Assembly (NCBI GenBank): GCA_020353195.1
Contig: CP070691.1
Span: 2,579,105 to 2,643,104 of the forward strand
Direction: 5' to 3'
DNA length: 64,000 nucleotides
Source of the DNA: Phycisphaerales bacterium
GTDB lineage: Bacteria > Planctomycetota > Phycisphaerae > UBA1845
Part shown: in pieces, positions 2 through 46,733 of the stretch
Layout of the letters: every line of letters starts with the position of its first letter
Position numbering within the stretch: the first letter of the stretch is position 1
The notes under the pieces: generated by a model
The model's database searches: none
Seen by the model: the letters and a program-made list of their open reading frames with translations, nothing else
What the model was told of the DNA's origin: nothing
Program-made: the position numbers and the translations under genes

Positions 2-1822
2 ACGGCTACAGTCGCCGGATCGCAACTTCCGGGTCTACCGGGTTCGACGGCGGAGCCGGCCAAGATCGTCCATTTCCGCGTGTCGGGTCCGCTGCTGGAG
101 CGTCCCGCGGGTGAGACGCTGATGTTGACGCTGGAACAGCCGCTCACGCTGCAGGAGCTGATCGCGCGGATGAAGAAGGCGCGAGACGACGAGTCGGTCA
201 AGGCCGTCGTGCTCACCTTCCGGCAGCCGTCGATGGGGTTCGCCCAACTGCAGGAGCTTCGACAGGCGATCATGCAGATCCGGGCGGTGGACAAGGACGT
301 GTACGTGCATGCCGACATGCTGTCCACCGGGCTGTATGCGCTGGCGTGCTCCGCCTCGCATGTCAGCATAGTGCCGACGGGCGACGTGTGGCTGATGGGG
401 CTGTACGGCGAGCAGCCGTACCTGCGGGGACTGCTCGACAAGATCGGCGTCGTGCCGGACTTCATCCAGATGGGCGATTACAAGAGCGCGGCCGAAATCC
501 TCACGCGCACGGGCCCGAGCGAACCGGCCGACGAAATGCTGACCTGGCTGCTCGACTCCCTGTATGGCAGCTTGGTGTCGATGATTGCGGAGTCTCGGGG
601 CATGACGCCGGAGAAGGTGAAGGAGATCATCGACACCGGTCCGCACACGGCCGAGAAAGCCCTTGAAGTCGGGCTGATCGACTCGGTGCAACACCGGCAG
701 GATTTCGTGGGGCACCTGAAGGAGCGCTACGGCGCAGCGACGAAGATCGTCCGCCGATACGGCGAGGACAAAGGCCCGGAAATCGACTTCTCGAACCCCC
801 TTATGGCCATCTGGGATCTGATCGCGGAAGTGACGAAGAAGGCCAAGAAGCCGACCAAGCCGGTTGTGGCGGTGGTGTACGTGGACGGCCCGATCCTCGT
901 CGGGTCGGAGGACCCGAGTCCGTTCGGGGCTTCGGGGCAGGCCCGCAGCACGACGATCCGCAAGGCGCTGGACAAGGCGAGGAAAGATTCGGCGGTCAAG
1001 GCGGTCGTGCTGCGCGTGGATTCGCCAGGGGGATCGGCGCTGGCGAGCGAGATCATCTGGGACGCCACGCAACGGGTGAAGGAGCAGAAGCCGCTCATCG
1101 CGTCGATGGGCAACGTTGCCGCCAGCGGCGGGTATTACGTCTCCTGCGGGGCCGACGCGATCTACGCGGACGAAACCACGATCACGGCGTCGATCGGAGT
1201 GATCGGGGGCAAGCTTGTCACGACCGGGATGTGGAACAAGCTCGGTGTGTCCTGGCACGCAAGGCAGCGCGGCAAGAACGCAGATCTGCTGAACACGTCG
1301 CGACCGTTCGCCGAGAAAGACCGCAAGAAGATCACCGAGTACATGGAAAACGTCTACACCGTGTTCAGGTCGCACGTGACGGCGGGACGCGGCGAGAAGC
1401 TCTCCAAGCCGCTGGACGAAATGGCCGGCGGGCGCGTCTATACGGGCGCTCAGGCGCTGGAGCTCGGGCTGGTCGACAAGATCGGGACGTTGGATGACGC
1501 GGTGAAGTTCGCCGCCGCCAAGGCGAACGTCAGCGACTACGAAATCCGCGTGCTGCCCGAGCCGAAGAAGCTGATGGACGTGTTCATGGAGATGTTCGCG
1601 GGCGACGACGACGAGGAAGAGGATATCACCCTGGACGGCCCGAGTTCGTGCCGCGTGAACCTCTTTGCGGAGAAGTCGCCCCTGGTCGACACTCTCCTGC
1701 CGCTGCTGCGAGAGCTGGACCCGATGCGAACGCAGGCTCTGCTGACCGCCCTGACGCGGCTGCAACTGATTCACGAAGAGGGCGTCATCACCATGATGCC
1801 ATACGATTTCGTGATCCGGTAG
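2..1822 (+). CDS. sppA: Signal peptide peptidase SppA (67K type, two S49/ClpP-fold halves). The 5' end probably runs off the window.
   Basis: The frame is open from nt 2, and the listed ORF start at 80 is GTG. The second half carries 'LRVDSPGGSALASE' and 'SMGNVAASGGYYVSCGADAIYADETTITASIGVIGGK', which are typical SppA motifs. Confidence 0.8.
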   Translation, partial: TATVAGSQLPGLPGSTAEPAKIVHFRVSGPLLERPAGETLMLTLEQPLTLQELIARMKKARDDESVKAVVLTFRQPSMGFAQLQELRQAIMQIRAVDKDVYVHADMLSTGLYALACSASHVSIVPTGDVWLMGLYGEQPYLRGLLDKIGVVPDFIQMGDYKSAAEILTRTGPSEPADEMLTWLLDSLYGSLVSMIAESRGMTPEKVKEIIDTGPHTAEKALEVGLIDSVQHRQDFVGHLKERYGAATKIVRRYGEDKGPEIDFSNPLMAIWDLIAEVTKKAKKPTKPVVAVVYVDGPILVGSEDPSPFGASGQARSTTIRKALDKARKDSAVKAVVLRVDSPGGSALASEIIWDATQRVKEQKPLIASMGNVAASGGYYVSCGADAIYADETTITASIGVIGGKLVTTGMWNKLGVSWHARQRGKNADLLNTSRPFAEKDRKKITEYMENVYTVFRSHVTAGRGEKLSKPLDEMAGGRVYTGAQALELGLVDKIGTLDDAVKFAAAKANVSDYEIRVLPEPKKLMDVFMEMFAGDDDEEEDITLDGPSSCRVNLFAEKSPLVDTLLPLLRELDPMRTQALLTALTRLQLIHEEGVITMMPYDFVIR

Positions 1823-2034: not shown

Positions 2035-2676
2035 ATGGTTACCGCGCGAGGTAAGATCGGGCTGGCGTGTCTGTCGGCGGCGCTATGCTTCGCCCTGGTG
2101 GTGATAGCGGAGCCTCGACTTGCACCGCCGGCCGACGAAAGCACGAAGCCAACAACACCACCGGCGAACGACGCTGAGCCCGAGGCGGCGCCCCAGGAGC
2201 CACCGACGGAGGCCGACCAACCGGCGGTCAAACCGGACCAACCCCCCGCCGACGGCACACCGCCGTCAGCACCGTCGGCGGAGGAGGTGATCAAGGCGTT
2301 TGAACAGGACCGCCCGAGAAACGTGGCCATCCCTCCGGTGAGCACGACCGCCGCGGCTGCGAAGCCGGCGGACCAAGAAGGTAAGAGGCCTCCGACGCGG
2401 TATCCCGACGGTTATCTGCTCATCGATCGGGCCGGTCGTGTGCGCCAGGACGGTCAGTGGTGGACCTTCGTCTTCGAGTCGGACAGCCCGTCGTTCGAGG
2501 AGCCACCGATGAAGCTCCTTCCCAACAGGATGCTCGAACGTGCGGTGTTCGAGGTGCGGGGCGCGCCGAACATCGTATTCATCGTGTCCGGGGAGATCAC
2601 CGATTATCAGGGTGAGAATTTCATGCTTCTTCGCAAGCTGCTTCGGCGGCGGGATCTGGGAAACCTCAAGAAGTAG
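2035..2676 (+). CDS. Hypothetical secreted protein with a Pro/Ala-rich linker and a C-terminal globular domain
   Basis: ATG 2035 gives the signal-like N-terminus 'MVTARGKIGLACLSAALCFALVVIA'. GGAGG lies about 11 nt upstream. I recognise no family. Confidence 0.5.
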   Translation: MVTARGKIGLACLSAALCFALVVIAEPRLAPPADESTKPTTPPANDAEPEAAPQEPPTEADQPAVKPDQPPADGTPPSAPSAEEVIKAFEQDRPRNVAIPPVSTTAAAAKPADQEGKRPPTRYPDGYLLIDRAGRVRQDGQWWTFVFESDSPSFEEPPMKLLPNRMLERAVFEVRGAPNIVFIVSGEITDYQGENFMLLRKLLRRRDLGNLKK

Positions 2677-2725: not shown

Positions 2726-3070
2726 ATGGAGCTTCGAATCGACAGTTCAGGACCCTATCCGGTCGCCCGGATCTGGGGAGAAATCCGGTCCGAGGACGCC
2801 CCCACGTTCGTGGAGGAGATCCACCCCCTGGTGGCGCAGTCGGATTCAAAGCTGGCGATTGACCTGTCCGGTGTTTCGTTTCTGGACTCGACCGGTCTCG
2901 CCTCGCTGATCAACGTCGTCACCCGCGCGCGGTTGGCCTCCGGACGGACCATCCTCGTATCGCCGACGCCGTTCGTCGCGGGCGTATTCGACGTGACCAA
3001 CCTCGATCAGTGGTTCGAGATCGCGGGCGATCTCGATGAAGCCGCGAAGTACTTCTCCGCGGGCGATTGA
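2726..3070 (+). CDS. STAS-domain protein (SpoIIAA/RsbV-type anti-sigma-factor antagonist)
   Basis: ATG 2726. 'LAIDLSGVSFLDSTGLASLINV' is the STAS phospho-serine loop (DSxG). Confidence 0.75.
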   Translation: MELRIDSSGPYPVARIWGEIRSEDAPTFVEEIHPLVAQSDSKLAIDLSGVSFLDSTGLASLINVVTRARLASGRTILVSPTPFVAGVFDVTNLDQWFEIAGDLDEAAKYFSAGD

Positions 3071-3227: not shown

Positions 3228-4121
3228 TCACGCGCTTCTCGCCCGGTGCCCCTCGGCGCGGTCAACGAGCTTCTCCACCACGTCGCACGTCTGTCTGATT
3301 TCGCCGGCCGTAAGCCGATAGCACGACGCTCCCCGGACGACGCCGGCCAGCACGTCCAGCCCGACGGCCCGGCAGCGCAGCAGGTTGAAGCAGAACCGGT
3401 GCAGCTCAAACGCGGCTTCGGCCCGGCTGATAGGTACCAGCGCGGGTCTGGCATTCCGCGCGTACTTCGGGAAGACGACATAGCGGATGGGGCAGGCGCG
3501 GCCGACCACGTCGGGCCTGACCGACGTCGGCTTGATGAAACCCACAAGCCCCTTGGCGGCTTTGACGTAGTGCCGGTTTCCGTGCACGGCGAGTCCGAGT
3601 GACTCGATGATGGGATGGGAAGCCCGCTTGATGCAGATGGCCCGGGGATACGGCTGCAGCTGGAGGGTCTTGGCGTGAATCAGCGCAAACTCGTCGCAGA
3701 GGTACCGCCATCCGCGAGCAAGCAGACCGGCGGTCAGCGTGGACTTGCCCACGCCTGACAGACCCGGCAAGATCACGCCTTGCCCGTCGATTTCCAACGC
3801 GGACGAATGAAGCTGAAGGCTCTGGGGCATGACCCGCGGGATCTGCAGGTTCAGCGACCACTCGACGTAGGGCAGGACTTCCTGGAACCTTGTGGGCTCG
3901 AAGTGCACGAACCCGTCGGCCGACACCTGGTATCGCCGGCGATGGCGCGCCGACAGCGGGGTCCGGCCGACCATGATCCGAATTTCCCCCTCACCGGGCC
4001 GGTCGGTCTGGAACTCGCGGTACAGGGACGTGTACTCGTCCAGAAGACGGGGCATGGACGTGGTCAGCGAGGCGTGAATGACGCCGATCCGGAAGTGCCT
4101 TGTACGCAGTTCGGGCTTCAT
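3228..4121 (-). CDS. HPr-kinase-related protein (P-loop C-terminal-domain type, 'HprK-related kinase A/B' class)
   Basis: Walker A 'GLSGVGKSTLTAGLLARG' followed by 'YLCDEFALI'. There is no HprK N-terminal domain. ATG 4121 lies 18 nt downstream of the stop of the upstream PqqD-fusion gene on the same strand. Confidence 0.7.
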   Translation of the reverse strand: MKPELRTRHFRIGVIHASLTTSMPRLLDEYTSLYREFQTDRPGEGEIRIMVGRTPLSARHRRRYQVSADGFVHFEPTRFQEVLPYVEWSLNLQIPRVMPQSLQLHSSALEIDGQGVILPGLSGVGKSTLTAGLLARGWRYLCDEFALIHAKTLQLQPYPRAICIKRASHPIIESLGLAVHGNRHYVKAAKGLVGFIKPTSVRPDVVGRACPIRYVVFPKYARNARPALVPISRAEAAFELHRFCFNLLRCRAVGLDVLAGVVRGASCYRLTAGEIRQTCDVVEKLVDRAEGHRARSA

Positions 4122-4139
4122 AGCGGGCGTCTTGTCGGC

Positions 4140-5966
4140 TCACTCTTCGCGCGTGGTCAGCCCCAGCTGGTCAAACTCGGCGATCATGCGCCGGACCTGG
4201 TTCATCGCGTCCGCCGCCGAGACGTCGTAGGTTTCAGCGAGGGCTTCGCCGATCTGAGCGGGGTCCGTCAAGCCGTCGCACCGGCGCCAGATGAACAGCG
4301 CAGTCTGGTTCAATCGATGCGTGTCGCCCGTCTCGGGGTCATAGATCAGCGCCTCATCGTCCAGCTCGTGAACGATCAGGTTCTTGGATCGGGTGGGGGT
4401 GCGTTCGCCGGCGGGGACGGGCGGCGGCTGATCAGGCTGGGAGGCGGACGCCGGGGCCGGTAGGTCCTGATCCGGGGTCCGCCCCGCAGGGGCGGCAGTG
4501 GCTGCCGCGTCGAGGTCGGCGGCATTCAGCACGCTACTGGGCGAGAGATTGTCTGGCGTCATGATCACCTCCTCCGGCCCGTGGTCCCAGTCATCATCAG
4601 AAGGTCCTGTCAGAAACATGGGTGTCACCGGGGGCAGTCCGGGGGCTTCCGGCACGTCGTTCAGGTTGGCGGCGATGGCCCTCCAGAACACGGAGCTATC
4701 CACACAGAGGTCCGGGACGCGTCGTCCGTTCAGGAACACCGTCGGCGTGGTGGTGACGCCGAGTCGTCTGGCCAGCGCCACGTCGCTCTGGACCGCTCGC
4801 CGGACGGCGTCGCTTTCCATGTCCGCCAGAAGTCGGTCGGCGTTCAGCCCGGATTGTCGGGCGAGCGCGGCGTAGTCCCAGTTGGGTCTGTCCTTGCGGT
4901 GCTCGAACAACAGGCGGTGCATTTCGTCGAACGCTCGTTGCCCGCCCTGGAGGCGCGCGGCCTCAGCCGCCAGACTGGCCGACGACACTGGCAGGTCCGG
5001 CACGGTAGGCTGCTCGGAAGCGCGATCGGTATCTTCGGCGGCGGCGGCAGGAAGATGCCGGATGTCCAAAGACAACTCGTCGCCGAAGACCTCGTTGATC
5101 ACGCGCTGGCGGCGCCGCTCGAAACACGCGCACCCGGCGCAGTCGTAATCGGTGAACACAACGATGACGACCCGGTCGGCATCGCCGGTAGCCGGCAAGG
5201 CCCGTACGTTCGAATCGCGCTGGGGGATGTACACGGTCGGCTGGGCGTAGTACTCGCGAAGAACAAAATCAGCGTCTCGCTGCAGAGCCGCCACCGCCTG
5301 CTTGATGCCGAAGGCTTTGCGCCACTGGCGGCGAGCCTCCGTCACGGCATTGAAGTAGAACCACATGCCGAGGCACGCGACACAGCATGCGGCAAAGGCG
5401 CAGGCACTGAGGCGCCGCTGGATGCGCGCGACCACCGGCGGATCGGTCAGCCCGCTGGACGTACGGCGCACGGATCTCGATCGCGACACACGCCGCAGGA
5501 TGAGCACGGTGAGAACGATGCCTGCGTTCAAACCGTTGGCCAGGGCGCAAAGCGGGCACCAACTGTCGACGGCCAACAGCATGATCGTCAGGAAGAAGAT
5601 CGAACCGATCAGCCCGCTGAATACGACCAGCAGCACCAGGCGCCACGTCCGCCGAGACCAGGCCGGCACCCGCCCCACCATGGTGAACCAGATGGCCACG
5701 CTGGTGAAGTAGGCCAGCCCCATCAGCGACGTGGGGACGACGAAACGACGCGTGCCGAAGTGGAAGTCGAACGAACCCCACCGGCTGTCCGCGACACCGG
5801 TGCAACTCGCGCTGGCAAAGATCTGGGATTCACAAAGCCGCAGGAGGAAGCTGGTCCCTTCGCCGGTAGCCTGCCAGCCGCCGTCGTGTTCGACCAGCAG
5901 TGTGCCCGACACCCAGGCGCCGCCGACCGCGAGAGCCACGATTGTAAAGACAAGAAATCGAACCAT
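4140..5966 (-). CDS. Fusion protein: VKOR membrane domain + DsbA/thioredoxin domain + Pro-rich linker + C-terminal PqqD (RRE) domain
   Basis: Start re-picked at ATG 5966 ('MVRFLVFTIVALAVGGAWVSG'). Five hydrophobic segments. VKOR loop Cys pair 'LCESQIFASASC' and TM CxxC 'WCPLC'. Thioredoxin 'FTDYDCAGCACF'. The last 81 aa, 'KNLIVHELDDEALIYDPETGDTHRLNQTALFIWRRCDG...IAEFDQLGL', are PqqD-like. Confidence 0.75.
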   Translation of the reverse strand: MVRFLVFTIVALAVGGAWVSGTLLVEHDGGWQATGEGTSFLLRLCESQIFASASCTGVADSRWGSFDFHFGTRRFVVPTSLMGLAYFTSVAIWFTMVGRVPAWSRRTWRLVLLVVFSGLIGSIFFLTIMLLAVDSWCPLCALANGLNAGIVLTVLILRRVSRSRSVRRTSSGLTDPPVVARIQRRLSACAFAACCVACLGMWFYFNAVTEARRQWRKAFGIKQAVAALQRDADFVLREYYAQPTVYIPQRDSNVRALPATGDADRVVIVVFTDYDCAGCACFERRRQRVINEVFGDELSLDIRHLPAAAAEDTDRASEQPTVPDLPVSSASLAAEAARLQGGQRAFDEMHRLLFEHRKDRPNWDYAALARQSGLNADRLLADMESDAVRRAVQSDVALARRLGVTTTPTVFLNGRRVPDLCVDSSVFWRAIAANLNDVPEAPGLPPVTPMFLTGPSDDDWDHGPEEVIMTPDNLSPSSVLNAADLDAAATAAPAGRTPDQDLPAPASASQPDQPPPVPAGERTPTRSKNLIVHELDDEALIYDPETGDTHRLNQTALFIWRRCDGLTDPAQIGEALAETYDVSAADAMNQVRRMIAEFDQLGLTTREE

Positions 5967-6472
5967 GTTCCTGGCCTGTGGAAATCCCGGGACCCTGTCG
6001 CAGATCGGCACCGCATGGCGCCGTCTCGCACCGGCGGGGACGCAAGCACCGACTCCCGGCATCCACCGCTGGACCTTCGCCGCTTCCCGGACGGCCTGGC
6101 GCGCCCTGGGGCGTCAGCTCGACGCTGATGCAGCGCTCTGTAGGCTCCGCGGGGCGTTTACTACACGGACCTTCCCATGTATCGGGCTTCTCGGGGGCGA
6201 GATGAAGTTGGCTCCGGATGGCCAGGGATTCGAGTGATGGCATCTGGCCCGGCAGCATGGCCCCGTCCGGCTGGCGTCCTGGCCAAGCTGCTCTCCGGGG
6301 GGGTGCCGCCGTGCCTTCGCCGGCCAGGCCGCCCGCTGCCGCTCATGGCGGCAGCCTGGTAGCGGCTCCGGGAAGCGGGCCTGGTGATACTGGTATCCGC
6401 TGCTTCGGGGCCGACCCACCTCGAGGGCTGCCGAAACCGCAGTTGCCCGCCCGCGTGACCGATAACCACCAT

Positions 6473-7609
6473 ATGAGTGGGTCACAGACTCCCCAATCCC
6501 TGCTGGCGATGTGCCTTGCCGGACGGGTGGCTGACGTTCCGAAGAGCGTCGATTGGCTTCATCTGGCCGACGGTGCCGGGAGCCTGGGCCTGTCGGGCCT
6601 GGTTCTCGAAGCGTTGGATCGGGCAGGCCTCCGCGTTCACGAGACGGCCTATCTGGCCCTGCGGGAGCAATCGACCGTAGTGGCCGGTCAGAACGCGCAC
6701 ATCACGCGCTGTTTCAAACCGATCGCCCGGGCGTTCGACGCCGCGGGGATTCCTCTTCTGCTGCTCAAAGGCGCGGCGCTGGGCTTGACGGTCTACCGCG
6801 AGCCGCGGCTGCGCCCGATGTCCGACGTGGACTGCATGGTGCGGTGCGAGCATCTGGACCAGGTCTGCGCCCTGCTCAAGCGTCTCGGTTGTCGGCGCGG
6901 CGCAGACCTGGTCCGGAGGGATTTTTTCCCGAGATACTTCAACGAGGTGGAGTACTTCACGCCTGATCGACGGTCCGTCCGGATCGATCTTCACGTTCGC
7001 CCCTTTCGGCCCTTACGGTATGCGCAGACCGTCCCGGCCGACGCGTTCTGGCGCGGTGCCGTACCGGCCGATCTGGGCGGCGCCGTCGCTTTGATGCCGA
7101 ACCCGAGCGATATGGTGATTCACCTGGCTGTCCATGCCGCCGTACACGGCGCGCGCCGCCCGCTCTGGCTGTACGACATTTACCGGTTCGCTCACGTTCA
7201 CCGCGACACGCTGGATTGGACGGCGGTGATCGAGCAGGCCGACGCCTGGCGACTGGTCTTGCCCCTCCGGGTCGCGCTGCAGCGGGTCGACGCGATGTTC
7301 GGACCGGCGGTGCCGCCGGACGTGATCGCGACACTGGACCGCCGGCGCGTGGGCCTGGCGGACCGGCTGACGCTGTGGCATGCCCCTCGGGACGAGGCGC
7401 ATCCGATGGGCCACCTGCTGGTGGACTTGTTGTGCACCCGCGGCTGGCGGTTCCGGCTTGGCTACCTGGCGGCAGTGCTTCTGCCGGGGCGGCCTCATCT
7501 CGAGTCGATCTACGCGGGGCGTCATCCGGGGTGGACGCTCTGCGCCCACGCGTGCCGAGTCATGCGCGCCATACGCCGGGCGCTGGGCCTGCGCGTCGAC
7601 ACGGCCTGA
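6473..7609 (+). CDS. Uncharacterised nucleotidyltransferase family protein (NTP_transf_5 / PF14907-like)
   Basis: ATG 6473 ('MSGSQTPQSLL'). 'IPLLLLKGAALGLTVYREPRLRPMSDVDCMVRCEHLDQVCALLKRLG' matches the family signature. Confidence 0.7.
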   Translation: MSGSQTPQSLLAMCLAGRVADVPKSVDWLHLADGAGSLGLSGLVLEALDRAGLRVHETAYLALREQSTVVAGQNAHITRCFKPIARAFDAAGIPLLLLKGAALGLTVYREPRLRPMSDVDCMVRCEHLDQVCALLKRLGCRRGADLVRRDFFPRYFNEVEYFTPDRRSVRIDLHVRPFRPLRYAQTVPADAFWRGAVPADLGGAVALMPNPSDMVIHLAVHAAVHGARRPLWLYDIYRFAHVHRDTLDWTAVIEQADAWRLVLPLRVALQRVDAMFGPAVPPDVIATLDRRRVGLADRLTLWHAPRDEAHPMGHLLVDLLCTRGWRFRLGYLAAVLLPGRPHLESIYAGRHPGWTLCAHACRVMRAIRRALGLRVDTA

Positions 7610-7805: not shown

Positions 7806-8909
7806 CTAATCCACCATATCCCAGGCTACGCGGGTATCGGCGGGGATCGGTACGACGGCGCGTCGTCCGATCAGTTGTGCCATCTCGTCCGGGCTGATGC
7901 CGCCGGAGGGTCGTTTGGCGGTCAATATGTCGCGGTCCAGAACGTCGCCGGGGCGGACGTCGCGGGTAACGACAATGCTCTTGCGGCAGCCGTCGCGGAC
8001 CGGCTCTTCCGAAGCATGCATGGACAGTTCGCCATCGCCCAGGGCCTCTTCCGCCCGGCGCACCCTCGTGATGTACTCGGCCATGGCGTCGGGCGCAAGC
8101 GACAGCGCGTGGTCGGGGCCCGGCAGCGTGTCGTCCAGCGTGAAGTGCTTTTCGAGCAGGCATGCGCCGGCGGCGACGGCGAGGGCCCCCGTCTCGACAG
8201 AGCAAGTGTGGTCGCTGAATCCGGTGGGGCGACCGAAGCGTTCGCGCAGCGCTGCGATCCGGTGCAGGTTCGCATCCTCCCAGGCGGTGGGGTAGGCGCT
8301 GACACAATGCAGAAGAATGAGCCGTTCCCGACATCCCAGTTCGGTCAACCGGTTCACGGTCCGCTCGAGTTCGTGTGCAAGGGACGCCCCGGTCGACAGG
8401 ATGACCGGGAGGTTCGCGCGGGCCACTTCCTCCAGCAACGGATGGTTGTTCAAGTCGGTCGAGGCGATCTTGATGGCCCGCACGCCAAGGCCCGTAAGAA
8501 GGTGAAGGTCCGTGATCCCGAACGGCGTGGCCAGTAACTCGATCCCGCTCGCGCGGCAGTGTTCGCACAGAACCGAGAAATCATCGCGACCGAGTTCGAG
8601 CTGCCGGAGCATCTCCCGTTGACAGAGGTCACCCGTGGCGTTTCTCTGGTAGTCGACGGTGGCGGCGTCGGCGGTGACCAGGTCGGCCGCGCGAAAGGCC
8701 TGGAACTTGACCGCATCAGCGCCGGTGCCGAGCGCGGCGTCGACCAGTTGGACAGCGGTGTTGAGATCCCCGTTGTGATTGACCCCGGCTTCGGCGACAA
8801 CGTATACGCGCCGCCCCGGGCCTACGGATGTGGCGCCGATGGTCACCGGCGACGGGCGCTCCGCGGGCGCCGGAGCGAATCCTGTCTGTTGTCGGGAAAC
8901 CGGTCTCAT
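7806..8909 (-). CDS. Nonulosonic-acid synthase family (NeuB/PseI/LegI-like) with a C-terminal SAF domain
   Basis: 'VYVVAEAGVNHNGDLNTAVQLVDAALGTGADAVKFQ' plus a C-terminal 'VVTRDVRPGDVLDRDILTAKRP' SAF-like segment. ATG at 8909. Confidence 0.8.
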   Translation of the reverse strand: MRPVSRQQTGFAPAPAERPSPVTIGATSVGPGRRVYVVAEAGVNHNGDLNTAVQLVDAALGTGADAVKFQAFRAADLVTADAATVDYQRNATGDLCQREMLRQLELGRDDFSVLCEHCRASGIELLATPFGITDLHLLTGLGVRAIKIASTDLNNHPLLEEVARANLPVILSTGASLAHELERTVNRLTELGCRERLILLHCVSAYPTAWEDANLHRIAALRERFGRPTGFSDHTCSVETGALAVAAGACLLEKHFTLDDTLPGPDHALSLAPDAMAEYITRVRRAEEALGDGELSMHASEEPVRDGCRKSIVVTRDVRPGDVLDRDILTAKRPSGGISPDEMAQLIGRRAVVPIPADTRVAWDMVD

Positions 8910-12018: not shown

Positions 12019-12237
12019 TCATCTCTCTGCCCGCTTGGCAATCCAATCCCGGTGAAGCTGAGACGCGACGTCGTCCATCTCCCTCAGCAGCTCGGCCTTC
12101 CGGCGCGCCGATTGCGCGTCCGCGGGCGACCCCTGGCCCTCCGCGAGGTCGGCAAACTCGCTGCATAAACGCTTCCAGCGTTCAACGAGCTGCCACTGTT
12201 CGTACTCAGTCAGGCGCTTCTCAGGTCGATCGAACAT
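12019..12237 (-). CDS. Small hypothetical helical protein, paralog 1
   Basis: ATG 12237 is preceded by AAGGAG about 11 nt upstream. Similar to the 13018 gene (KRLTEYEQWQLVERW...ELLREMDDVASQLHRDWIA). Confidence 0.5.
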   Translation of the reverse strand: MFDRPEKRLTEYEQWQLVERWKRLCSEFADLAEGQGSPADAQSARRKAELLREMDDVASQLHRDWIAKRAER

Positions 12238-13017
12238 GATGCCGCGTTCTCCTTGCCCGCACCACAACAGCCAGGCGCCCCTTCCCGCCGCGTAGGACCG
12301 CTTGCGGGTCCACTGCCGGCCAAAAAACGACGCAGAATCCCGGTACTCGACGGGCGCTGCGCCTTGTTCCCGCTCCCGATAAACACGCGGGAACAGAGTG
12401 AGGTTGCACCACACGCACGATGGGGACACCAGTACCGAGGACTCCAGAGAAAAGAGGCACGCCTTGGTCCGGTTGTGGCCCTAAACCGCCCCTGGTACGC
12501 CCCGCAAAGGCACGAGTGCCCGGTCCGGGTCCTTCGGCGCCGCAAATGCTGCAACCCGATACCATGCCGTCGGATTCGGGGAAGCTGCCGTTGCGTTCAA
12601 TGCACCCTGCACCGCGCCGCCGGTGGCGGCCGAAGCCATGCGGCCGACATCCGCTGAAGCTCCGGACGGACCGCGTCACCCGTCCACCCCGATCGTTGAG
12701 CCTCGCGTCGCATCCGCACTGGCGCACCCGTTCCAATCTGCCGAACTCATTGGTGCGTAACACCAAAGTCCTTGTTCTCTGCCAATCTGCGCCAACGTGA
12801 CCTCGGTACACACGTTCAGGCCGAACGACCCCGTCAGGATCTCGGTTTCTGTTTTCATGAGGATCCGCCGCGGCCTCGGGCAACACGACCGAAAAAGCCG
12901 GGCCACTTGCGTTACATAACGTAACAGCGAAGTGGCCCCTGCGCTGGGATGGGTCGAATTATCTCCTGCCATTGCGCGCCGCTGCGCCGGTCCCACGGGG
13001 GCCCGGCTGCTCTGCTG

Positions 13018-31687: not shown

Positions 31688-32839
31688 ATGAGCGATTCTC
31701 GTGAAACCGAGCCGTCGCGGGGCATCGTGCGGTTGGTGAGCGACGTGATCGCCAGGAGTCTGGCCGCCGGTGCCAGTGACATTCACTTCGAACCTTTAGC
31801 CGACCGCCTGCTCGTGCGGATTCGGGTTGACGGCCGGCTTGCGGACTTCGAGGGAATCCCGGCGGCGATCGCGGAGAACGTGATTGCCCGGTTGAAGGTT
31901 ATGGCCGGGCTGCTGACGTACCGCGTGGACATTCCTCAAGAGGGGAGCCTGCGGTGGCAGCCGGAGGGTGACGGCGCCGGGACCGGGCCCACCGACCTGC
32001 GTGTGGCCACGTTCCCGACGATTCGCGGGGAGCGGGCGGTGGTTCGCGCCTTTGGGGCCCGCGCTCCGGTGGAAACGCTTGACCAGCTGGGATTGGCACC
32101 GAGGCAGGTCGATCAACTCCGTTGGGCTACGTCACTTCCAAGCGGTCTGGTGCCGATCACGGGGCCTGCGGGCAGCGGCAAGACGACGACCCTGTACGCG
32201 ATGGTGCGACACATCGTGCAGACGACTCCGGATCGCAGCATCGTGACCTTGGAGGACCCCGTGGAGCAGCGTATTGATCGAGTTGCTCAAATCCAGATCA
32301 ATCCGTACGGCGAACTGAACTACGAACGATGCCTGCGATCGCTGCTGCGGCAGGACCCCCAAACCATTCTTCTGGGGGAGATCCGCGACGCCGCCACCGC
32401 GTCGGTTGCGGTGGAGGCGTCACTTACGGGTCATCTGATTCTCACCACGATGCACAGCGGCGACCCGGCGGAGGCGATTGTGCGGCTGCTGGAGATGGGG
32501 ATTGCCGCGTATCAGGTCGTGAGCTCGGTAGTGATGGTCTGCTCGCAACGGCTACTGCGCCGCGCTCAGACGGGGCAGCATGGTGAAGATGAGAGGTCGG
32601 CGCACCGTCAGTTCGGTCCGGGGGGCCGATACGTCGGTCGGGTCGCCTGCGCACAGATCGCCCGCATTGACGAGACGGTCCGCGAGTTGATTCTCGCTCA
32701 TCCTTCGGTGTCCCGTCTGCGGCAAGCGATCGCGGGGCAGGGGCCGGACCTGTATCAGCGCGCGTGTGAGCTTGCCGATCAGTGTGTTACCGATACGGAC
32801 GAAGTCCGGCGGATTCTCGGCGAACCGCTGGAGACATGA
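31688..32839 (+). CDS. GspE/PilB-family secretion ATPase, short form (no N1 domain, no tetra-Cys Zn site)
   Basis: 'ASDIHFEP', Walker A 'GPAGSGKTTTLYA', 'ILLGEIRD', 'GHLILTTMHSGD'. Confidence 0.8.
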   Translation: MSDSRETEPSRGIVRLVSDVIARSLAAGASDIHFEPLADRLLVRIRVDGRLADFEGIPAAIAENVIARLKVMAGLLTYRVDIPQEGSLRWQPEGDGAGTGPTDLRVATFPTIRGERAVVRAFGARAPVETLDQLGLAPRQVDQLRWATSLPSGLVPITGPAGSGKTTTLYAMVRHIVQTTPDRSIVTLEDPVEQRIDRVAQIQINPYGELNYERCLRSLLRQDPQTILLGEIRDAATASVAVEASLTGHLILTTMHSGDPAEAIVRLLEMGIAAYQVVSSVVMVCSQRLLRRAQTGQHGEDERSAHRQFGPGGRYVGRVACAQIARIDETVRELILAHPSVSRLRQAIAGQGPDLYQRACELADQCVTDTDEVRRILGEPLET

Positions 32840-34059
32840 GCGATGGCTCAGGGCGGGTGCAGACGATGAGGTTCTACTCTTACGAAGGTCAATGCCCGGG
32901 CGGCACGGCCATCAGCGGCACGATCGAAGCGGAGAGTCAGGACGACGCGATGGCGCATCTCGACGCCATGGGCGTGCAGGTGGTGCAGCTTTCGCAAGTC
33001 AAGCCGCCGAGGCCGGAGTCGGCCGTCGGATACGACGACTTCATCTTCTTCAACGAGCAGTTGGCGTCGCTGGCCGATGCCCGCGTTGCGCTGGACAAGG
33101 GGCTTCGCGAAATCGCGAGAGACATCCGGGGCGGCCGCCTGCGACGGGTGATCAACCGTATCGCCGACAAACTCGAGCACGGAGTGCCCCTGGACCAGGC
33201 GGTGGCGGCGCATGAATCCAGTCTGCCGGTCCTCTACAGCCGTGTCATTCGGGCGGGCATCCGCAGCGGTCAGCTCTCGGCGGCGCTGCTGAACCTGTCG
33301 CAGCATCTGCGGTTCATTGCCCAAGCCCGGAGAATCGTGTTCGAGGCCCTCTCGTATCCGATGACGGTCCTGTTCATCGCGTTGGCGCTATTCTCCCTGA
33401 TCATGCAGTGGGTGATTCCCCAATTCGAGGAAGTCATTCTGGATTTCAATGCTCCGGTGCCGCGTTTCTCGCGGTATGTGTTTTCGTTCGCCCGCGCCTA
33501 TCCGTGGTTGCTGATGGGGGTGGGGATCACCGCCGTCGCAGTCGTGGGTTTATGGGGCGCGCTTCAGGCCACCGCTCGTGGGCGACGGGTGCGTGAGCGA
33601 TTGGTGCTGGCGGTTCCCGTCGTGGGACGGCTGGTTCGCGTGTCGCTGATCGCTCGTTTCTTCCGCTCGGTCTCGCTCTCGGTGGCCGGCGGGATCCCTT
33701 TGCCGGAGACGCTGCGCATGGCGTCCCAGGCGACCGGTAGCCCGGGGTTAATCCGTGACGCCGATCGAGTCGCTGAAGGGATTGAGCGCGGGGAATCCGC
33801 CGCTCGGGCCGGTGAATCGGCACGGTTGCTTCCCCCCATGTTCGGATACGTCGTAGATACGGCTGCCGCCCGGAGCATCCTGCCGCAAGCGACGGCCGAA
33901 CTCGCGAAGGCGTACGAAATGCGGGCCGCCCATTACCAGAGCCTGTTGCGGACCTGGTTGGTTCCGTTGGCTGTGATCTTTGTCGGGGTCTCGGTGGGGC
34001 TCTGCGTGGTGGCCATGTTCTGGCCACTCGCGCGCCTTATCCAAGGTGTGAGCATCTGA
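32836..34059 (+). CDS. GspF/PilC-type inner-membrane platform protein (two T2SSF repeats), copy 1
   Basis: ATGA overlap with the ATPase gene. Canonical cytoplasmic N-terminus 'FYSYEGQCPGGTAISGTIEAESQDDAMAHLDAMGVQVVQL'. 'FFNEQLASLADARVALDKGL' and 'FFRSVSLSVAGGIPLPETL'. Confidence 0.8.
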   Translation: MSDGSGRVQTMRFYSYEGQCPGGTAISGTIEAESQDDAMAHLDAMGVQVVQLSQVKPPRPESAVGYDDFIFFNEQLASLADARVALDKGLREIARDIRGGRLRRVINRIADKLEHGVPLDQAVAAHESSLPVLYSRVIRAGIRSGQLSAALLNLSQHLRFIAQARRIVFEALSYPMTVLFIALALFSLIMQWVIPQFEEVILDFNAPVPRFSRYVFSFARAYPWLLMGVGITAVAVVGLWGALQATARGRRVRERLVLAVPVVGRLVRVSLIARFFRSVSLSVAGGIPLPETLRMASQATGSPGLIRDADRVAEGIERGESAARAGESARLLPPMFGYVVDTAAARSILPQATAELAKAYEMRAAHYQSLLRTWLVPLAVIFVGVSVGLCVVAMFWPLARLIQGVSI

Positions 34060-34151
34060 TCGAGTTCGCTGCAGAGGGGAGTGAATGAGTCGATGCGAAT
34101 CAACGCCGGCTTGATAATCTGCCCGGCCTGTTTGAGATCGGGCCGGGCCTC

Positions 34152-35405
34152 GTGGACCAACCACACCCCTGCGAGGGCAGCGCCGTGAGTGATGTTCCGT
34201 GCATCGTGATCTTGGGATTCGCCGGCGTTTTCATTTACATCGCCGACCGGTGCCTGACGTGGTTGGCCTGGCAGCTGTCAGGCATCAAAGGACCCCCCAT
34301 CCGCAGCACGATCGCTAGCCTGGTGCTGCGGTGGCGGATCCTCTCCTTCACCGGGATGACCATCGCCCATCTGTCCACCGCTGCCCGCCTCAATCTGCCT
34401 CTGGGACGGACGGTCCTTTTGGCCAGCCGCGACGAGCGCGGCCAGCTCCGCACGATACTTGGCCGGCTCGGGCAATGGCTGAACAAGGGCACGATGCTGT
34501 CCGTCGCCCTGGAGCACTCGATTCCGGCCTGCCCCTCGTTCGTCACCAGTATGGTTCGGGCCGGCGAAGACTCGGGCCAGCTGCGGCGGGCGTTGGCGAC
34601 GCTGGAGACGATGATCGAGGATCGCCAGCGGCGCATCCGTTCGGGCGTGCTCGGCAACTGGGTCTATCCGGTCGTGTTGTTCTTCGTGTGGGCCACTGTT
34701 GTGTCGTACACGATGGCCGTCATCGTACCGAGGTTCCGGGAGATCTTCCTGGACTTCGGCGCGGTCTTGCCACCGATCACGAGGGCGTTGATCGACTTCG
34801 CCGACGAGGTTGTCTTTTTCTCTTCTGTGTTATTCTTCGCCATGTTACTAGTGGGGGCTGCCCTGGCCGTTGTTGTCCTGCTGTCCGTGCGCCCGCGACG
34901 TGTGGACTCGCCCCGTCTGCTTTCGCGCGTCGGCGATACGCTGCGATGGTACCTGCCGATTCTGCACGGTATCGACCGCGGGTTCGGCTTTGCCGCCTCG
35001 GTCGACGCCCTGGCCATGGGGTTGGCCGGCGGGCTGCCGTTGGACCGGGCGGTGCAGCTCGCCGGCGACGTTGACGTGAACATCCATGTGCGTCGGCGGT
35101 TCAGGTGGTTCGGGAGACTCATGGGAGATGGCCAACCGCCGGGGGCGGCTGCCACGCAGGCCGGGTTGGGGCCGGTCATCACTGGCGCAATCAGGAGCGT
35201 TGTCCACGGGGCCCAGCCGCAGGCGGCCCTCGAACACGCCGCCCGGTATCACCGCGCCACGGCTTACCGATGGTGGCATTGTCTCGGGCACGTGATCGGT
35301 CCGATGGTCACGTTGATCGCCGCCTGCGCCGTGGGATTCGTCGCCGTCGCCCTGTTTACGCCGTTGATCACGCTGATGGACTCTGTTGTCACGGGATTGG
35401 AGTGA
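34152..35405 (+). CDS. GspF/PilC-type platform protein, copy 2 (divergent, with a hydrophobic N-terminus)
   Basis: 'LGQWLNKGTMLSVALEHSIPACPSFVTSMVRAGEDSGQLRRAL' and a second repeat 'FAASVDALAMGLAGGLPLDRAV'. The start is GTG 34152 or GTG 34185. Confidence 0.65.
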   Translation: MDQPHPCEGSAVSDVPCIVILGFAGVFIYIADRCLTWLAWQLSGIKGPPIRSTIASLVLRWRILSFTGMTIAHLSTAARLNLPLGRTVLLASRDERGQLRTILGRLGQWLNKGTMLSVALEHSIPACPSFVTSMVRAGEDSGQLRRALATLETMIEDRQRRIRSGVLGNWVYPVVLFFVWATVVSYTMAVIVPRFREIFLDFGAVLPPITRALIDFADEVVFFSSVLFFAMLLVGAALAVVVLLSVRPRRVDSPRLLSRVGDTLRWYLPILHGIDRGFGFAASVDALAMGLAGGLPLDRAVQLAGDVDVNIHVRRRFRWFGRLMGDGQPPGAAATQAGLGPVITGAIRSVVHGAQPQAALEHAARYHRATAYRWWHCLGHVIGPMVTLIAACAVGFVAVALFTPLITLMDSVVTGLE

Positions 35406-39602: not shown

Positions 39603-40592
39603 TCAGGCCCTGGGATGGGCGTCGTCGTAGGCCTGTTTGAGTCTCTTGGCGGTCAGGTGGGTGTATATCTGAGTCGTGGACAGTGACTGATGTCCGAGCA
39701 ACTCCTGGACCGATCGCAGGTCGGCTCCGTTGTTGAGCATGTGGGTAGCGAAGCTGTGCCGCAGGGTGTGGGGGCTGATGCTCGGGTCGAGGCCGGCTTC
39801 AGCCAGGTACTTGTCGAGCTTGCGGCGGACGCTTCGCGTGCTCAGCCGCTGTCCGTGCTTGTTGACGAACAGGGCGTCGGGGTCGAACGTGGCCGCCTTG
39901 GCGTCCGACCGCCGCAGTTCGAGGAACCGGTTGACGGCGCTCAAGGCGGTCGGCGCGATCGGGGTCCGCCTCTGCTTCTTTCCTTTGCCGCGTACCTGGA
40001 TGCACTGGCCGGTGAAGTCAACATCGGAGATGTTCAGATCGACGAGTTCGCTGACCCGGATGCCGGTGGAATACATGACCTCCAGCATGGCCCGGTCGCG
40101 GGCTCCGAGCAGCGTCGTGTCGTCGGGTGTATTGAGGAGTGTCGTGATCTTCTCCGGCTCCAGGAATTTGGGCAGCCGTCGTTCCTGTTTCGGCGTTCGT
40201 ATGGCGGCCAGGGGGTTGGAGTGGACGTAGCCCCGCCGCAGGCAGAATTTGTAGAAGCTGCGCAGGGTCGCGAGCTTTCGAGCGGTGGTGGACTTCGAGT
40301 AGTCCTGCTCGCTCAGGTACGTCAGGAACGTCTTGATGCCCTCCGTGGTGACGCTGACCAGCTTCTGGCGGACGCCGGTTTTTTCGAGTACGGCCGTCCC
40401 CGTCTGTGGCGCACCGAAGCCGGCGGCACCGCCGGTGGCTGTCCCTGCCGGCGCCTCACCGGCTCTTTGCCCGGTCAGGAACCCGCAGAACTGGCTGAGG
40501 TCCGCGGCATAGCACTTGGCCGTGTGCGGCGAGAAGTGCCGCTCGAACTTCAGGTAGTTCAGGAACTCGTTGATCAGATCGTTTTCGCTCAT
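39603..40592 (-). CDS. xerC: Tyrosine recombinase XerC/XerD family
   Basis: ATG 40592 ('MSENDLINEFLNYLKFERHFSPHT'). 'HTLRHSFATHMLNNGADLRSVQELLGHQSLSTTQIYTHL' carries the catalytic R..HxxR..Y. A Gly/Ala-rich insertion sits in the N-terminal domain. Confidence 0.85.
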   Translation of the reverse strand: MSENDLINEFLNYLKFERHFSPHTAKCYAADLSQFCGFLTGQRAGEAPAGTATGGAAGFGAPQTGTAVLEKTGVRQKLVSVTTEGIKTFLTYLSEQDYSKSTTARKLATLRSFYKFCLRRGYVHSNPLAAIRTPKQERRLPKFLEPEKITTLLNTPDDTTLLGARDRAMLEVMYSTGIRVSELVDLNISDVDFTGQCIQVRGKGKKQRRTPIAPTALSAVNRFLELRRSDAKAATFDPDALFVNKHGQRLSTRSVRRKLDKYLAEAGLDPSISPHTLRHSFATHMLNNGADLRSVQELLGHQSLSTTQIYTHLTAKRLKQAYDDAHPRA

Positions 40593-40691
40593 GGTCGCTA
40601 GCCACACCTCGGCGAAATCCACACGCACTTTCGCAGGAACCGCCCTGACTGGGTCGGTAGCCGAGCGGTACCTTTGACTCGCCTGCACGTC

Positions 40692-43511: not shown

Positions 43512-45194
43512 ATGGCGGATCCACCCTCGACGACCATACGATCGCCCGGTGCGGGCCCGGTTCGTGACCTTCCCGGGGTGGCCCGGCGCGTCCTGATCAT
43601 CGGCTTGGACGGCGCCACCTTCGACGTGCTCGACCCGATGATTCAGCGGGGGCGCATGCCTCGGCTGAAGGCGTTTCTGGCGGGCGGAACGTCCGGGATT
43701 CTGCGCTCGACCATACCCCCGATCACGCCGGCGGCCTGGACCACCTTCATGACCGGCAAGGGTCCCGGCACCCACGGCATCATTGACTTCGAGCGGTACG
43801 ACGCACGGGCCAACCGCCTGACCCTCAACACGACCAACTGCCTCAGACACGTACGGACGATCTGGCAGATTGTCGGCGACAAGGGCTTCGGTGTGGGATG
43901 CGTGAGCATCCCCATGACCTATCCGCCGACGGCGGTCAACGGATTCATGATCAGCGGGTTCGGCACGCCGGATCGCGACAGCGAGTTCACGTATCCGGCC
44001 GCCCTGAAGGACGAGGTCCTGCGGGTCTGCCCGGACTACGGCTTCGGGAGCAAGTGGCGGCGTAGGATGTTCGGCGGCGACGCGCTGCTCCGCGAGAACT
44101 TGGCTGCGGTCAAACGCAGCTTCCATCACGGTTACGAGTTGGCCTGCCATTGTGGCGAGCGGTTCGGATGGGACGTGCTGATGGTCGTTCTCAAGCTCGT
44201 GGACAACCTGCAGCATAAGACGTGGAGGTACCTCGATCCCCGATGGGCACCGCGCTGTCCGAAACGGGCGGAGATGGTGGCGGACTGCTTCGCCGACCTG
44301 GACGAGGCCTTCGGCCGACTGGTGGACTACGCCGGGCGAAACGACGCGCTGGTGTTTGTCATGTCCGACCACGGTCACGGCAGTCTGGAGGGCCAGGCCC
44401 AGCCCAACCTGCTGCTCAGGCAGTGGGGCTGCCTGGGCGTCAAACCGGGCGCCCAGTCGGCGGCCCGCGGGCGTCGCCTGCTGCGTCGCCTGACGAACAG
44501 GAAGCGAAGCCGGTTCACGGAGGGCCGCATCGGCATCGAGCAGGATCTGGCTATCGACATGAACCGGACGCAGGCGTGCGTCATGCACGCGGGGATGTCC
44601 GGGTTCCTTTACATCAACTTGGCGGGCCGGCAGCGCACGGGCACTGTCCCGCCCGACCAGTATGAGCCTCTGCGCAACGACCTGCGGCGCCGGTTTCTCG
44701 AGGTTACGGACGTCGAGCCGGGCGGCCGAACCGTCCGCGTCTTCCAGGAGGTCCACAAGCCCGAGGAGTTGTACGGCTGCTCGCGCGACGGACGGGAGTG
44801 GCTGCCGGACCTGCTGCTGGTTCCCCGCGACGGTCTGGCCGTGATCCGCAGGATCCGCACGTCGACGCCGGTGCGCTGGTTTCCCGTGCGCCGCATCGAG
44901 GGCACGCATCGTCGGGAGGGCATGTTCGCCGTCGCCGGGCCGGGGATTGCCCGCGGCAGAACCGTGGATGCGGACATCGTCGACTCGACGCCGACGATCC
45001 TGGCCATGCTGGGCCTGCGGATCCCCGACGACATGGAAGGGCGCGTGATCGAGGGCCTGTTCGATCCACCAATCCACTTCGAGTTCGAGAAGGCAGCGCC
45101 TGCCGGTGACGCGGGACCGGCCGACGAGGTCTATTCCGACCACGAGCTACAGAAGGTAACCGAGCGCCTTATTGACTTGGGTTACCTGCAGTAG
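43512..45194 (+). CDS. Alkaline-phosphatase superfamily protein (type I phosphodiesterase / nucleotide pyrophosphatase-like)
   Basis: 'RVLIIGLDGATFDVLDPM...RSTIPPITPAAWTTFMTGKGPGTHGI', 'VFVMSDHGH', and the family-typical C-terminus 'RLIDLGYLQ'. Confidence 0.7.
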   Translation: MADPPSTTIRSPGAGPVRDLPGVARRVLIIGLDGATFDVLDPMIQRGRMPRLKAFLAGGTSGILRSTIPPITPAAWTTFMTGKGPGTHGIIDFERYDARANRLTLNTTNCLRHVRTIWQIVGDKGFGVGCVSIPMTYPPTAVNGFMISGFGTPDRDSEFTYPAALKDEVLRVCPDYGFGSKWRRRMFGGDALLRENLAAVKRSFHHGYELACHCGERFGWDVLMVVLKLVDNLQHKTWRYLDPRWAPRCPKRAEMVADCFADLDEAFGRLVDYAGRNDALVFVMSDHGHGSLEGQAQPNLLLRQWGCLGVKPGAQSAARGRRLLRRLTNRKRSRFTEGRIGIEQDLAIDMNRTQACVMHAGMSGFLYINLAGRQRTGTVPPDQYEPLRNDLRRRFLEVTDVEPGGRTVRVFQEVHKPEELYGCSRDGREWLPDLLLVPRDGLAVIRRIRTSTPVRWFPVRRIEGTHRREGMFAVAGPGIARGRTVDADIVDSTPTILAMLGLRIPDDMEGRVIEGLFDPPIHFEFEKAAPAGDAGPADEVYSDHELQKVTERLIDLGYLQ

Positions 45195-46644: not shown

Positions 46645-46733
46645 CGGCGGAGTTTTCCCCAGTTCCAAACCGGCATCGGCGCCGCAAGGCGCCCCCATAT
46701 GACGAGTGCGACGCGGCGGGAGCGCAGTCCGGC

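Follow-up and report, generated by a model that had tools for sequence, protein, structure and literature searches.

A 64,000-nucleotide stretch of the genome of a Phycisphaerales bacterium (GenBank assembly GCA_020353195.1, contig CP070691.1, positions 2,579,105 to 2,643,104 of the forward strand) carries three neighboring genes that very probably form a cassette of the HPr-rel-A or LPP-like kind, in which a peptide or protein is modified in a leader-dependent manner. This 64-kb stretch, whose G+C content is about 65% throughout, is called the window below, and all positions are numbered within it unless a related locus is named. The genes encode an HprK-like kinase, a membrane protein that joins VKOR, DsbA-like and PqqD domains, and a nucleotidyltransferase of family PF14907. 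More specifically, we consider it probable that they represent the Phycisphaerae version of the HPr-rel-A cassette and serve the leader-dependent maturation of small secreted peptides, by a logic related to that of the LPP family of Bacillota. The particular chemistry that we propose for this pathway has, in our judgment, a somewhat less than even chance of being correct.

The cassette comprises the following features.

3228-4121, minus strand: HprK-like kinase, 297 aa (TIGR04352, Pfam Hpr_kinase_C)
4140-5966 (frame open to 6062), minus strand: VKOR-DsbA-PqqD fusion membrane protein, 608 aa (Pfam VKOR, DSBA/Thioredoxin_4 and PqqD)
4158-4355, minus strand: PqqD domain, a RiPP (ribosomally made peptide with post-translational modifications) recognition element (RRE), the last ~70 residues of the fusion (Pfam PqqD, TIGR04353)
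4713-5174 (residues 297-450 of the open frame), minus strand: DsbA-like thioredoxin domain with CAGC308, predicted to be periplasmic (Pfam Thioredoxin_4, DSBA)
5511-5945 (residues 40-184 of the open frame), minus strand: VKOR domain with loop Cys77/Cys87 and CPLC169 (Pfam VKOR, 57 bits; hydropathy and CxxC search)
5967-6472, no strand: divergent intergenic region of 506 bp, with no precursor homologue
6473-7609, plus strand: PF14907 (NTP_transf_5) nucleotidyltransferase, 378 aa (Pfam; start at 6473 from the database gene call)

Enzymes of the Cassette

The kinase aligns with nearly the whole of the TIGR04352 model, HprK_rel_A (positions 2-280 of 280; 177.1 bits against a curated cutoff of 200; E=3.8e-52), and the second-best family reaches only 33 bits. 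It does not belong to HprK/P proper, for which TIGR00679 gives 33.4 bits against a cutoff of 240. A first-pass annotation, made from the sequence alone, had described this 297-residue protein as having only the P-loop half of HPr kinase. That description fits the Pfam match, in which Hpr_kinase_C is hit at profile positions 5-56 of 171, around the P-loop, with a score under the gathering threshold (E=2e-7), but it does not fit the predicted structure. Foldseek matches the AlphaFold2 (AF2) model (pLDDT 92) to PEPCK over most of its length and to the catalytic domains of HprK/P, so the fold appears to be complete, and the kinase as modeled is a whole PEPCK/HprK-fold enzyme rather than half of one. 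The possibility, raised with the same annotation, that catalytic residues have been lost was not borne out: His105, the P-loop G123-T128 (GVGKST) and the acidic pair D143-E144 are invariant in the kinase family (alignment A1, 26 members), and a profile built from this alignment places the His, the P-loop and the acidic pair onto the HprK/P structures 3tqf and 1knx.

The divergently transcribed gene had been read correctly as an uncharacterized nucleotidyltransferase, since it matches PF14907 with 160.5 bits (E=7e-47). K99-G100, D118xD120 and D172xH174 are invariant in this protein and its relatives (alignment A4, 22 of 22 members). A sequence search of the PDB gave no match, and the AF2 model (pLDDT 90) has weak Foldseek matches (E of 1e-3 or worse) to ANT(2'')-Ia, LnuA and FKRP nucleotidyltransferase domains. 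Judged by their conserved residues, both the kinase and the nucleotidyltransferase look active. Many PF14907 homologues of more distant cassettes (for example, P0211, P0219 and P0250) are fused to a SET domain (PF00856), a hint of an extra methyltransferase step.

The third gene had been recognized as a PqqD domain encoded 18 nt upstream of the kinase. Both the distance (stop at 4140, kinase start at 4121) and the family hold, with PF05402 matching residues 570-635 of the frame 4140-6062 (57 bits, E=2.1e-15) and TIGR04353 (PqqD_rel_X, entitled 'HPr-rel-A system PqqD family peptide chaperone' in NCBIfam) matching residues 567-635 with 39.6 bits, against a cutoff of 35 that it thus passes. What had been overlooked is that this is a domain and not a free-standing protein, namely the C-terminus of the 608-residue VKOR-DsbA membrane protein, whose likely start is the ATG at 5966 by comparison with the related locus L068. 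Bacterial fusions of VKOR with thioredoxin or DsbA replace DsbB, and the window protein has the features of such disulfide-forming enzymes: five predicted transmembrane helices (TM; hydropathy scan) with a strongly basic TM4-TM5 loop, the loop pair Cys77/Cys87 and CPLC169 at the start of TM4, both on the side expected for a bacterial VKOR, and a C-terminal thioredoxin-fold domain with CAGC308. It differs from them in being a cassette-linked paralogue that ends in an RRE domain. The DsbA and PqqD domains are separated by an acidic, Pro-rich linker of 110-150 residues (about 120 in the window protein) that contains no TM segment; given the five helices, both domains are therefore predicted to be periplasmic. 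This fusion of PqqD to VKOR-DsbA was found only in the window and in L068, L001, L012, L013 and L019, with a partial version in L023, and the RRE survey literature that we searched contains no report of the combination. The standalone PqqD proteins of the other loci have neither a signal peptide nor a TM segment and are expected to be cytoplasmic.

A second VKOR-DsbA protein, of 522 aa with CFWC and CGHC motifs and without PqqD, is encoded in the window at 45169-46737 on the minus strand. Its role is probably housekeeping disulfide formation, in which case the cassette copy would be a dedicated paralogue.

Related Loci and a Candidate Precursor Family

Database searches gave 257 relatives of the kinase, nearly all from metagenome-assembled genomes of Phycisphaerae or other Planctomycetota. 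When a single genome per species was scanned, 64 loci came back; once duplicates had been removed and the two loci retrieved at the outset added, 62 distinct loci, nearly all from Phycisphaerae, were tabulated and mapped by extraction of open reading frames (ORFs) with phmmer and hidden Markov model (HMM) searches. Plasmids of Mesorhizobium and Methylosinus carry more distant homologues of the kinase, but in different gene contexts that were not informative. The triad of kinase, PqqD and PF14907 genes is present in 56 related loci, and the recurrent order is a small ORF, an optional VKOR-DsbA gene, PqqD, kinase and PF14907. The last of these is sometimes upstream or divergent, as it is in the window, where it lies about 500 bp away.

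A small precursor-like ORF adjoins the cassette, next to VKOR-DsbA or PqqD and usually just upstream, in 48 of the 62 distinct loci, and these ORFs are also predicted by independent gene callers. Thus, a conserved short ORF of the kind sought when the triad was first noted does exist. The first-pass annotation saw no visible precursor, which holds for the 64 kb of the window but not for its relatives, where the precursor family is plain.

The encoded peptides are about 60-130 residues long, with cores of 5-80 residues. Their leaders carry a twin-arginine (Tat-type) motif, [S/T]RRx[F/V/I][L/V/M], in 40 of 41 distinct cases, and within a moderately hydrophobic stretch there follows the motif [FYW]xxPx[LIVFAM], present in 47 of 48 precursors. 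The RR pair and the Pro of the second motif are invariant (alignment A3). The aromatic residue of that motif lies 12-13 residues past RR and mostly 16 residues ahead of the first residue after the last AxA. Cores typically open with AGS, ASG, ANYS or similar, and in most precursors there is a Ser among the first few core residues. Two core types were found. Cys-type cores have the pattern C-x6-C-x5-9-CC-x3-4-C-xn-C, a knottin-like spacing of six Cys (some have 12), and short-type cores are tails of 5-10 residues, such as ASPSS, ASGVSATS and GSGGSGVS, of which 14 of 16 end in Ser. The family forms 64 clusters in a database of 5.8 billion proteins, all annotated 'hypothetical' and all from this phylum. 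No model in NCBIfam (release 20) or in the Pfam copy searched matches the precursors, nor does any TAT-signal model; they give only sub-threshold matches to knottin, spider-toxin and conotoxin families and to one model for peptides of radical-SAM RiPP systems.

The distribution of the VKOR-DsbA gene follows the type of core. Where it is present, 23 precursors are Cys-type and none is short-type; where it is absent, nine are Cys-type and 16 are short-type. This restriction to Cys-type cores fits a dedicated oxidase for Cys-rich cores. A direct tie between kinase and peptide is provided by three loci in which the two are a single gene (L054, 9926-11125; L057, 9891-11081; L060, 3196-4275). In each of them, a stop-free kinase frame runs through a linker of 30-50 residues into an RR-leader and core, an arrangement reminiscent of other RiPP classes in which enzyme and precursor are fused. 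These fusions, together with the cytoplasmic location expected for the standalone PqqD proteins, indicate that the leader does more than direct export.

Precursor genes can also occur in tandem (two in L055) or apart from any cassette. For example, a complete Phycisphaerales genome (L070, CP070772.1) has at 8001-8288 a precursor with an RR-YVAP leader and a six-Cys core but no cassette within 8 kb; it adjoins genes for FtsK/SpoIIIE-family, WXG100 and Imm33-like proteins. On two proteobacterial plasmids, NCBI's annotation pipeline (PGAP) marks HPr-rel-A genes, and the gene upstream of them encodes a larger protein that begins with RR, a hydrophobic stretch and AxA: 161 aa on a Sphingomonas plasmid (L072, 6023-6508) and 270 aa on a Vibrio plasmid (L071, 5677-6489), with mature parts of 130-240 residues. 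The gene table of L071 lists no PqqD gene, but the gap is occupied by an 84-aa ORF (6514-6768).

Within 8 kb of the kinase, clustering of ORFs revealed few other recurrent genes. In 23 loci, the nucleotidyltransferase gene is followed immediately by genes for GT2 and/or GT4 glycosyltransferases, and a metallo-beta-lactamase-fold (MBL) hydrolase gene is near the kinase in 15. Apart from these and the core genes, only clade-limited synteny was seen (a STAS gene in 12 loci and a protein of unknown function in nine). Lasso cyclase, B2, radical-SAM and YcaO genes are absent from the recurrent families in this interval, and the flanks annotated for L001, L003 and L069 contain none of them either. 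A constant location of homologous triads inside lasso or other RiPP clusters, which would have spoken against the earlier proposal, was not seen.

The Missing Precursor in the Window

No precursor was found in the six frames of the window by tblastn with peptides of two relatives, by the family HMM or by a leader-only HMM. The best match of the precursor HMM, a Cys-rich stretch at 12169-12654 of the plus strand (…ECPVRVLRRRKCCNPIPCRRIRGSCRCVQC…; E=0.023), is leaderless and matches in the Cys part only, and it looks like an alternative-frame artefact of high-GC DNA. Both this match and the second-best one (E=0.72) were judged to be due to chance.

In L001, L012, L013 and L019, which have the same divergent gene order as the window, a precursor gene is located between the nucleotidyltransferase and VKOR genes. 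The corresponding region of the window, 5967-6472, contains no ORF homologous to the precursors (tblastn, HMM) and no Rfam match. It is 85% identical to that of the closest relative, L068, with indels of 1, 1, 1, 3, 10 and 4 bases, so that it is noncoding, and a different small ORF there was rejected on this ground. A block of about 65 bp (6158-6222), which has no Rfam match, is almost identical in the two genomes amid diverging flanks; a promoter or operator common to both is one possibility.

Lack of an adjacent precursor gene is shared by the window, L068 and about a dozen other loci, and is not a property of the whole system. L068 also lacks GT2 and GT4 genes. Upstream sequence is complete in at least L007, L015, L016, L020 and L031, and a search for divergent precursors upstream of precursor-less loci (these five and others) gave none that was credible. 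Nevertheless, all three window genes are under purifying selection in comparison with L068 (dS about 0.35-0.41): dN/dS is 0.16 for the kinases, which are 90% identical, 0.26 for the fusion protein, whose indels are all in-frame and keep the reading frame, and 0.31 for the nucleotidyltransferase, measured over the shared N-terminal part only. From this intact and selected cassette without a local precursor we infer that the enzymes must have a substrate whose gene lies at another place in the genome.

Neighboring Genes

The following genes flank the cassette, as identified from the ORF listing with HMM scans.

80-1822, plus strand: SppA (S49 peptidase)
~2038-2676, plus strand: unknown Pro-rich secreted-looking protein
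~2726-3070, plus strand: STAS anti-sigma antagonist
7806-8909, minus strand: NeuB-family synthase (NeuB and SAF domains)

The SppA, Pro-rich protein and STAS genes lie just past the kinase and are syntenic in 9-12 of the closest loci. This may reflect lineage synteny or a functional link, such as clearing of cleaved leaders by SppA. On the other side, the gene for a NeuB-family nonulosonic-acid synthase is convergent with the nucleotidyltransferase gene; its scores are below the NeuB and PseI equivalog cutoffs, and it is not kept beside the cassette in relatives. In Pfam scans of 40 of the 43 predicted window genes, lasso cyclase, B2 protease, radical-SAM and YcaO genes were all missing, and the sole ABC components, 15-25 kb from the cassette, resemble importers of sugars or other solutes. 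Hence, the first-pass statement that the window has no lasso cyclase, leader protease, radical-SAM enzyme, YcaO or exporter stands for the genes scanned. No homologues of the cassette-linked GT2 and GT4 enzymes are present in the window. Genes for an ATPase of the type II secretion (T2SS) or type IV pilus kind and two T2SSF platform proteins (31688-35405, plus strand) and for a tyrosine recombinase/integrase (39603-40688, minus strand) are unrelated to the cassette.

Comparison with Known Systems

The name HPr-rel-A had been given to this triad by the first-pass annotation, and the assignment is supported by the names of the NCBIfam/TIGRFAMs models and by PGAP, whose annotation of the Sphingomonas plasmid has these three genes side by side. 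The families and their order are the same as in the HPr-rel-A system, and identical triads are annotated by PGAP on proteobacterial plasmids. Of the family models, PF05402, PF14907 and TIGR04353 all match. The differences are that the kinase falls just under the TIGR04352 cutoff (177 versus 200 bits) and that PqqD is fused to VKOR-DsbA. The SynChlorMet system does not fit, with ScmC at 23.5 bits against a cutoff of 125, ScmD at 40 against 100 and no radical-SAM gene among the window genes scanned.

The closest characterized system is the LPP family of Bacillota, which has the components LppA, LppK, LppB, LppS, LppD and LppN (Popov et al., Nat Commun 2026, PMC13381572). In these clusters, which contain an RRE, a kinase and an NTP-transferase but no cyclase, the target of polyphosphorylation by LppK is Ser3 of the linear core, the leader is removed by the signal-peptidase-I-like enzyme LppS, and the RRE, like those of lasso pathways, binds the motif [Y/W]xxPx[L/V/I/F/A]; the NTP-transferase LppN was silent in the heterologous host, and both LPPs and paeninodins were stated to be restricted to Bacillota (PMC13381572). 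Because this family has been described, the first-pass conclusion that the enzymes belong to a pathway not yet described is out of date.

The likeness extends to several features. Both systems combine an RRE, an HprK-like kinase and an NTP-transferase without a lasso cyclase, although the RRE is discrete in LPP clusters and fused here. The [Y/W]xxP-type leader motif of LPPs has a counterpart in the [F/Y]xxPx[L/V/I] of our relatives' precursors, a Ser is found near the start of the core, and a signal-peptidase-I logic is common to both, with a dedicated LppS in one and an AxA site in the other. However, the relatives' leaders are twin-arginine signals, many of their cores are six-Cys knots, and a dedicated VKOR-DsbA protein is present, with the RRE fused to it in the clade of the window. 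The LPP leader consensus YxxPxVLxHQxIxFETxxS was not seen in the relatives' precursors, which share only [F/Y]xxPx[L/V/I]. No archaeal-type (SipW-like) signal peptidase I of the LPP kind was found among the scanned window genes or in the flanks of L001, L003 and L069 (the neighboring peptidase is the S49 enzyme SppA), and no MsbA-like exporter of the LPP type is near the cassette in the window.

Lasso tailoring enzymes provide the other point of comparison. In the pseudomycoidin pathway, PsmK phosphorylates the C-terminal Ser and PsmN is required for addition of a hexose to that phosphate; the acidic pair D158/D159 of PsmK and the DxD residues D134/D136 of PsmN are essential, and the fold of PsmN has been likened to that of ANT(2'')-Ia (PMC6993621). 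The acidic pair corresponds to D143-E144 and the DxD of the PF14907 type to D118/D120 in the window proteins, and ANT(2'')-Ia is likewise among the top structural matches here. The paeninodin and pseudomycoidin clusters differ in having a lasso peptide as substrate, whereas neither a lasso cyclase nor B1 or B2 is present here, and the substrate in this clade would be linear and disulfide-rich. The pair that defines a lasso cluster, the macrolactam synthetase C and the transglutaminase-like B2, was found neither in the window nor among the recurrent neighbors. Our literature searches on HPr-rel-A, PF14907, a Planctomycetota version of the system and twin-arginine RiPP leaders returned nothing beyond the LPP and lasso papers.

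Proposed Pathway and Alternatives

A maturation pathway can be proposed in which the PqqD/RRE domain would bind the [F/Y]xxP leader and the HprK-like kinase would phosphorylate or polyphosphorylate the core Ser. The PF14907 enzyme, aided by GT2 and GT4 proteins where these are present, might then extend the phosphate with a sugar or a nucleotide-derived group. The peptide would be exported by the Tat or Sec route, its leader would be cut at AxA, probably by the housekeeping signal peptidase I, and the dedicated VKOR-DsbA module would make three disulfides. In the clade of the window, the RRE tethered to the periplasmic DsbA domain could bring the peptide, exported but with its leader still attached, to the oxidase, and the window cassette itself would act in trans on the product of an unlinked precursor gene. 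In its fullest form, this proposal amounts to a new class of peptides with Tat-type leaders, cytoplasmic phosphorylation or glycosylation, with Ser as the phosphorylated residue, export, and knottin-like folding with three disulfides by VKOR-DsbA, with a periplasmic RRE in the window clade. So complete a picture is tentative and, taken as a whole, rather unlikely to be right in every part.

Several observations weigh against peptide maturation by such a route. The score of the kinase is below the curated cutoff of its family, and the window itself contributes no precursor. The role of the PF14907 enzymes is uncertain because LppN was inactive in the LPP study (PMC13381572). The association of VKOR-DsbA with Cys-type cores is confounded by phylogeny, as related loci are not independent samples. 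The internal position of the 'signal' in the kinase-precursor fusions argues against its being purely an N-terminal export signal. Moreover, the predicted periplasmic location of the fused PqqD domain sets it apart from a kinase that, being ATP-dependent, is expected in the cytoplasm. Because the standalone PqqD proteins appear to be cytoplasmic, the partner of the RRE may differ among clades, or the topology prediction may mislead.

It is possible, but unlikely, that the true clients are larger secreted or cell-envelope proteins with Tat leaders, which the cassette would modify, for example by phospho-glycosylation, and that small Cys-rich peptides are one class among them. The two proteobacterial cassettes annotated by PGAP, with their upstream proteins of 161 and 270 residues, point in this direction, as do the absence of a small precursor from the window, the NeuB-family gene beside its cassette and the location of LPP and paeninodin clusters in polysaccharide loci. 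However, the proteobacterial support consists of two examples only, the NeuB neighbor is not conserved, and the partner ORFs in Phycisphaerae are nearly all short, with cores no longer than 80 residues. A less probable alternative is that the window cassette is an orphan remnant, left with enzymes that have no cognate substrate after the precursor was deleted from the divergent intergenic region. Four loci carry a precursor exactly where the window and L068 are noncoding, no member of the precursor family is encoded in the 64 kb, and GT2/GT4 homologues are missing as well. Decay is opposed by three intact genes whose dN/dS is 0.16-0.31 between two diverged genomes that both lack an adjacent precursor, by the further loci in the same state (at least the five named above) and by the unlinked precursor in the complete genome of L070.

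That the enzymes tailor a lasso peptide, or a different classical RiPP, with its core genes a short way beyond the locus can be regarded as very improbable. The lasso clusters of paeninodin and pseudomycoidin are the best-known setting of HprK-like kinases and PF14907 enzymes, and the PqqD domain does match lasso PqqD models weakly, but at scores of 27 against a cutoff of 70 and 17 against 80. Moreover, an Asn-synthase-like cyclase, B2, radical-SAM and YcaO proteins are missing from the 40 scanned genes of the window, from the flanks of L001, L003 and L069 and from the recurrent neighbors. We prefer leader-dependent maturation of small secreted peptides, for which the precursors beside the related cassettes and the kinase-precursor fusions argue.

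Implications

The HPr-rel-A triad has long been listed in family databases without an assigned substrate, and of its relatives only the LPPs of Bacillota and the enzymes that tailor lasso peptides have been characterized. The window by itself is the enzyme set minus the precursor and yields less. The comparative data, however, give a concrete candidate substrate family for the cassettes of Phycisphaerae, with a leader code that can be recognized: RR, 12-13 residues, [F/Y]xxPx[L/V/I], about 16 residues and AxA. These genes are thus a pointer to secreted peptides, knotted by disulfides and modified by phosphate, in a phylum that has been poorly explored for natural products. The fusion of an RRE to VKOR-DsbA also raises the question of whether leaders are recognized in the periplasm; if they are, this would be the first case of an RRE at work beyond the cytoplasm and of a disulfide oxidase guided by a leader.

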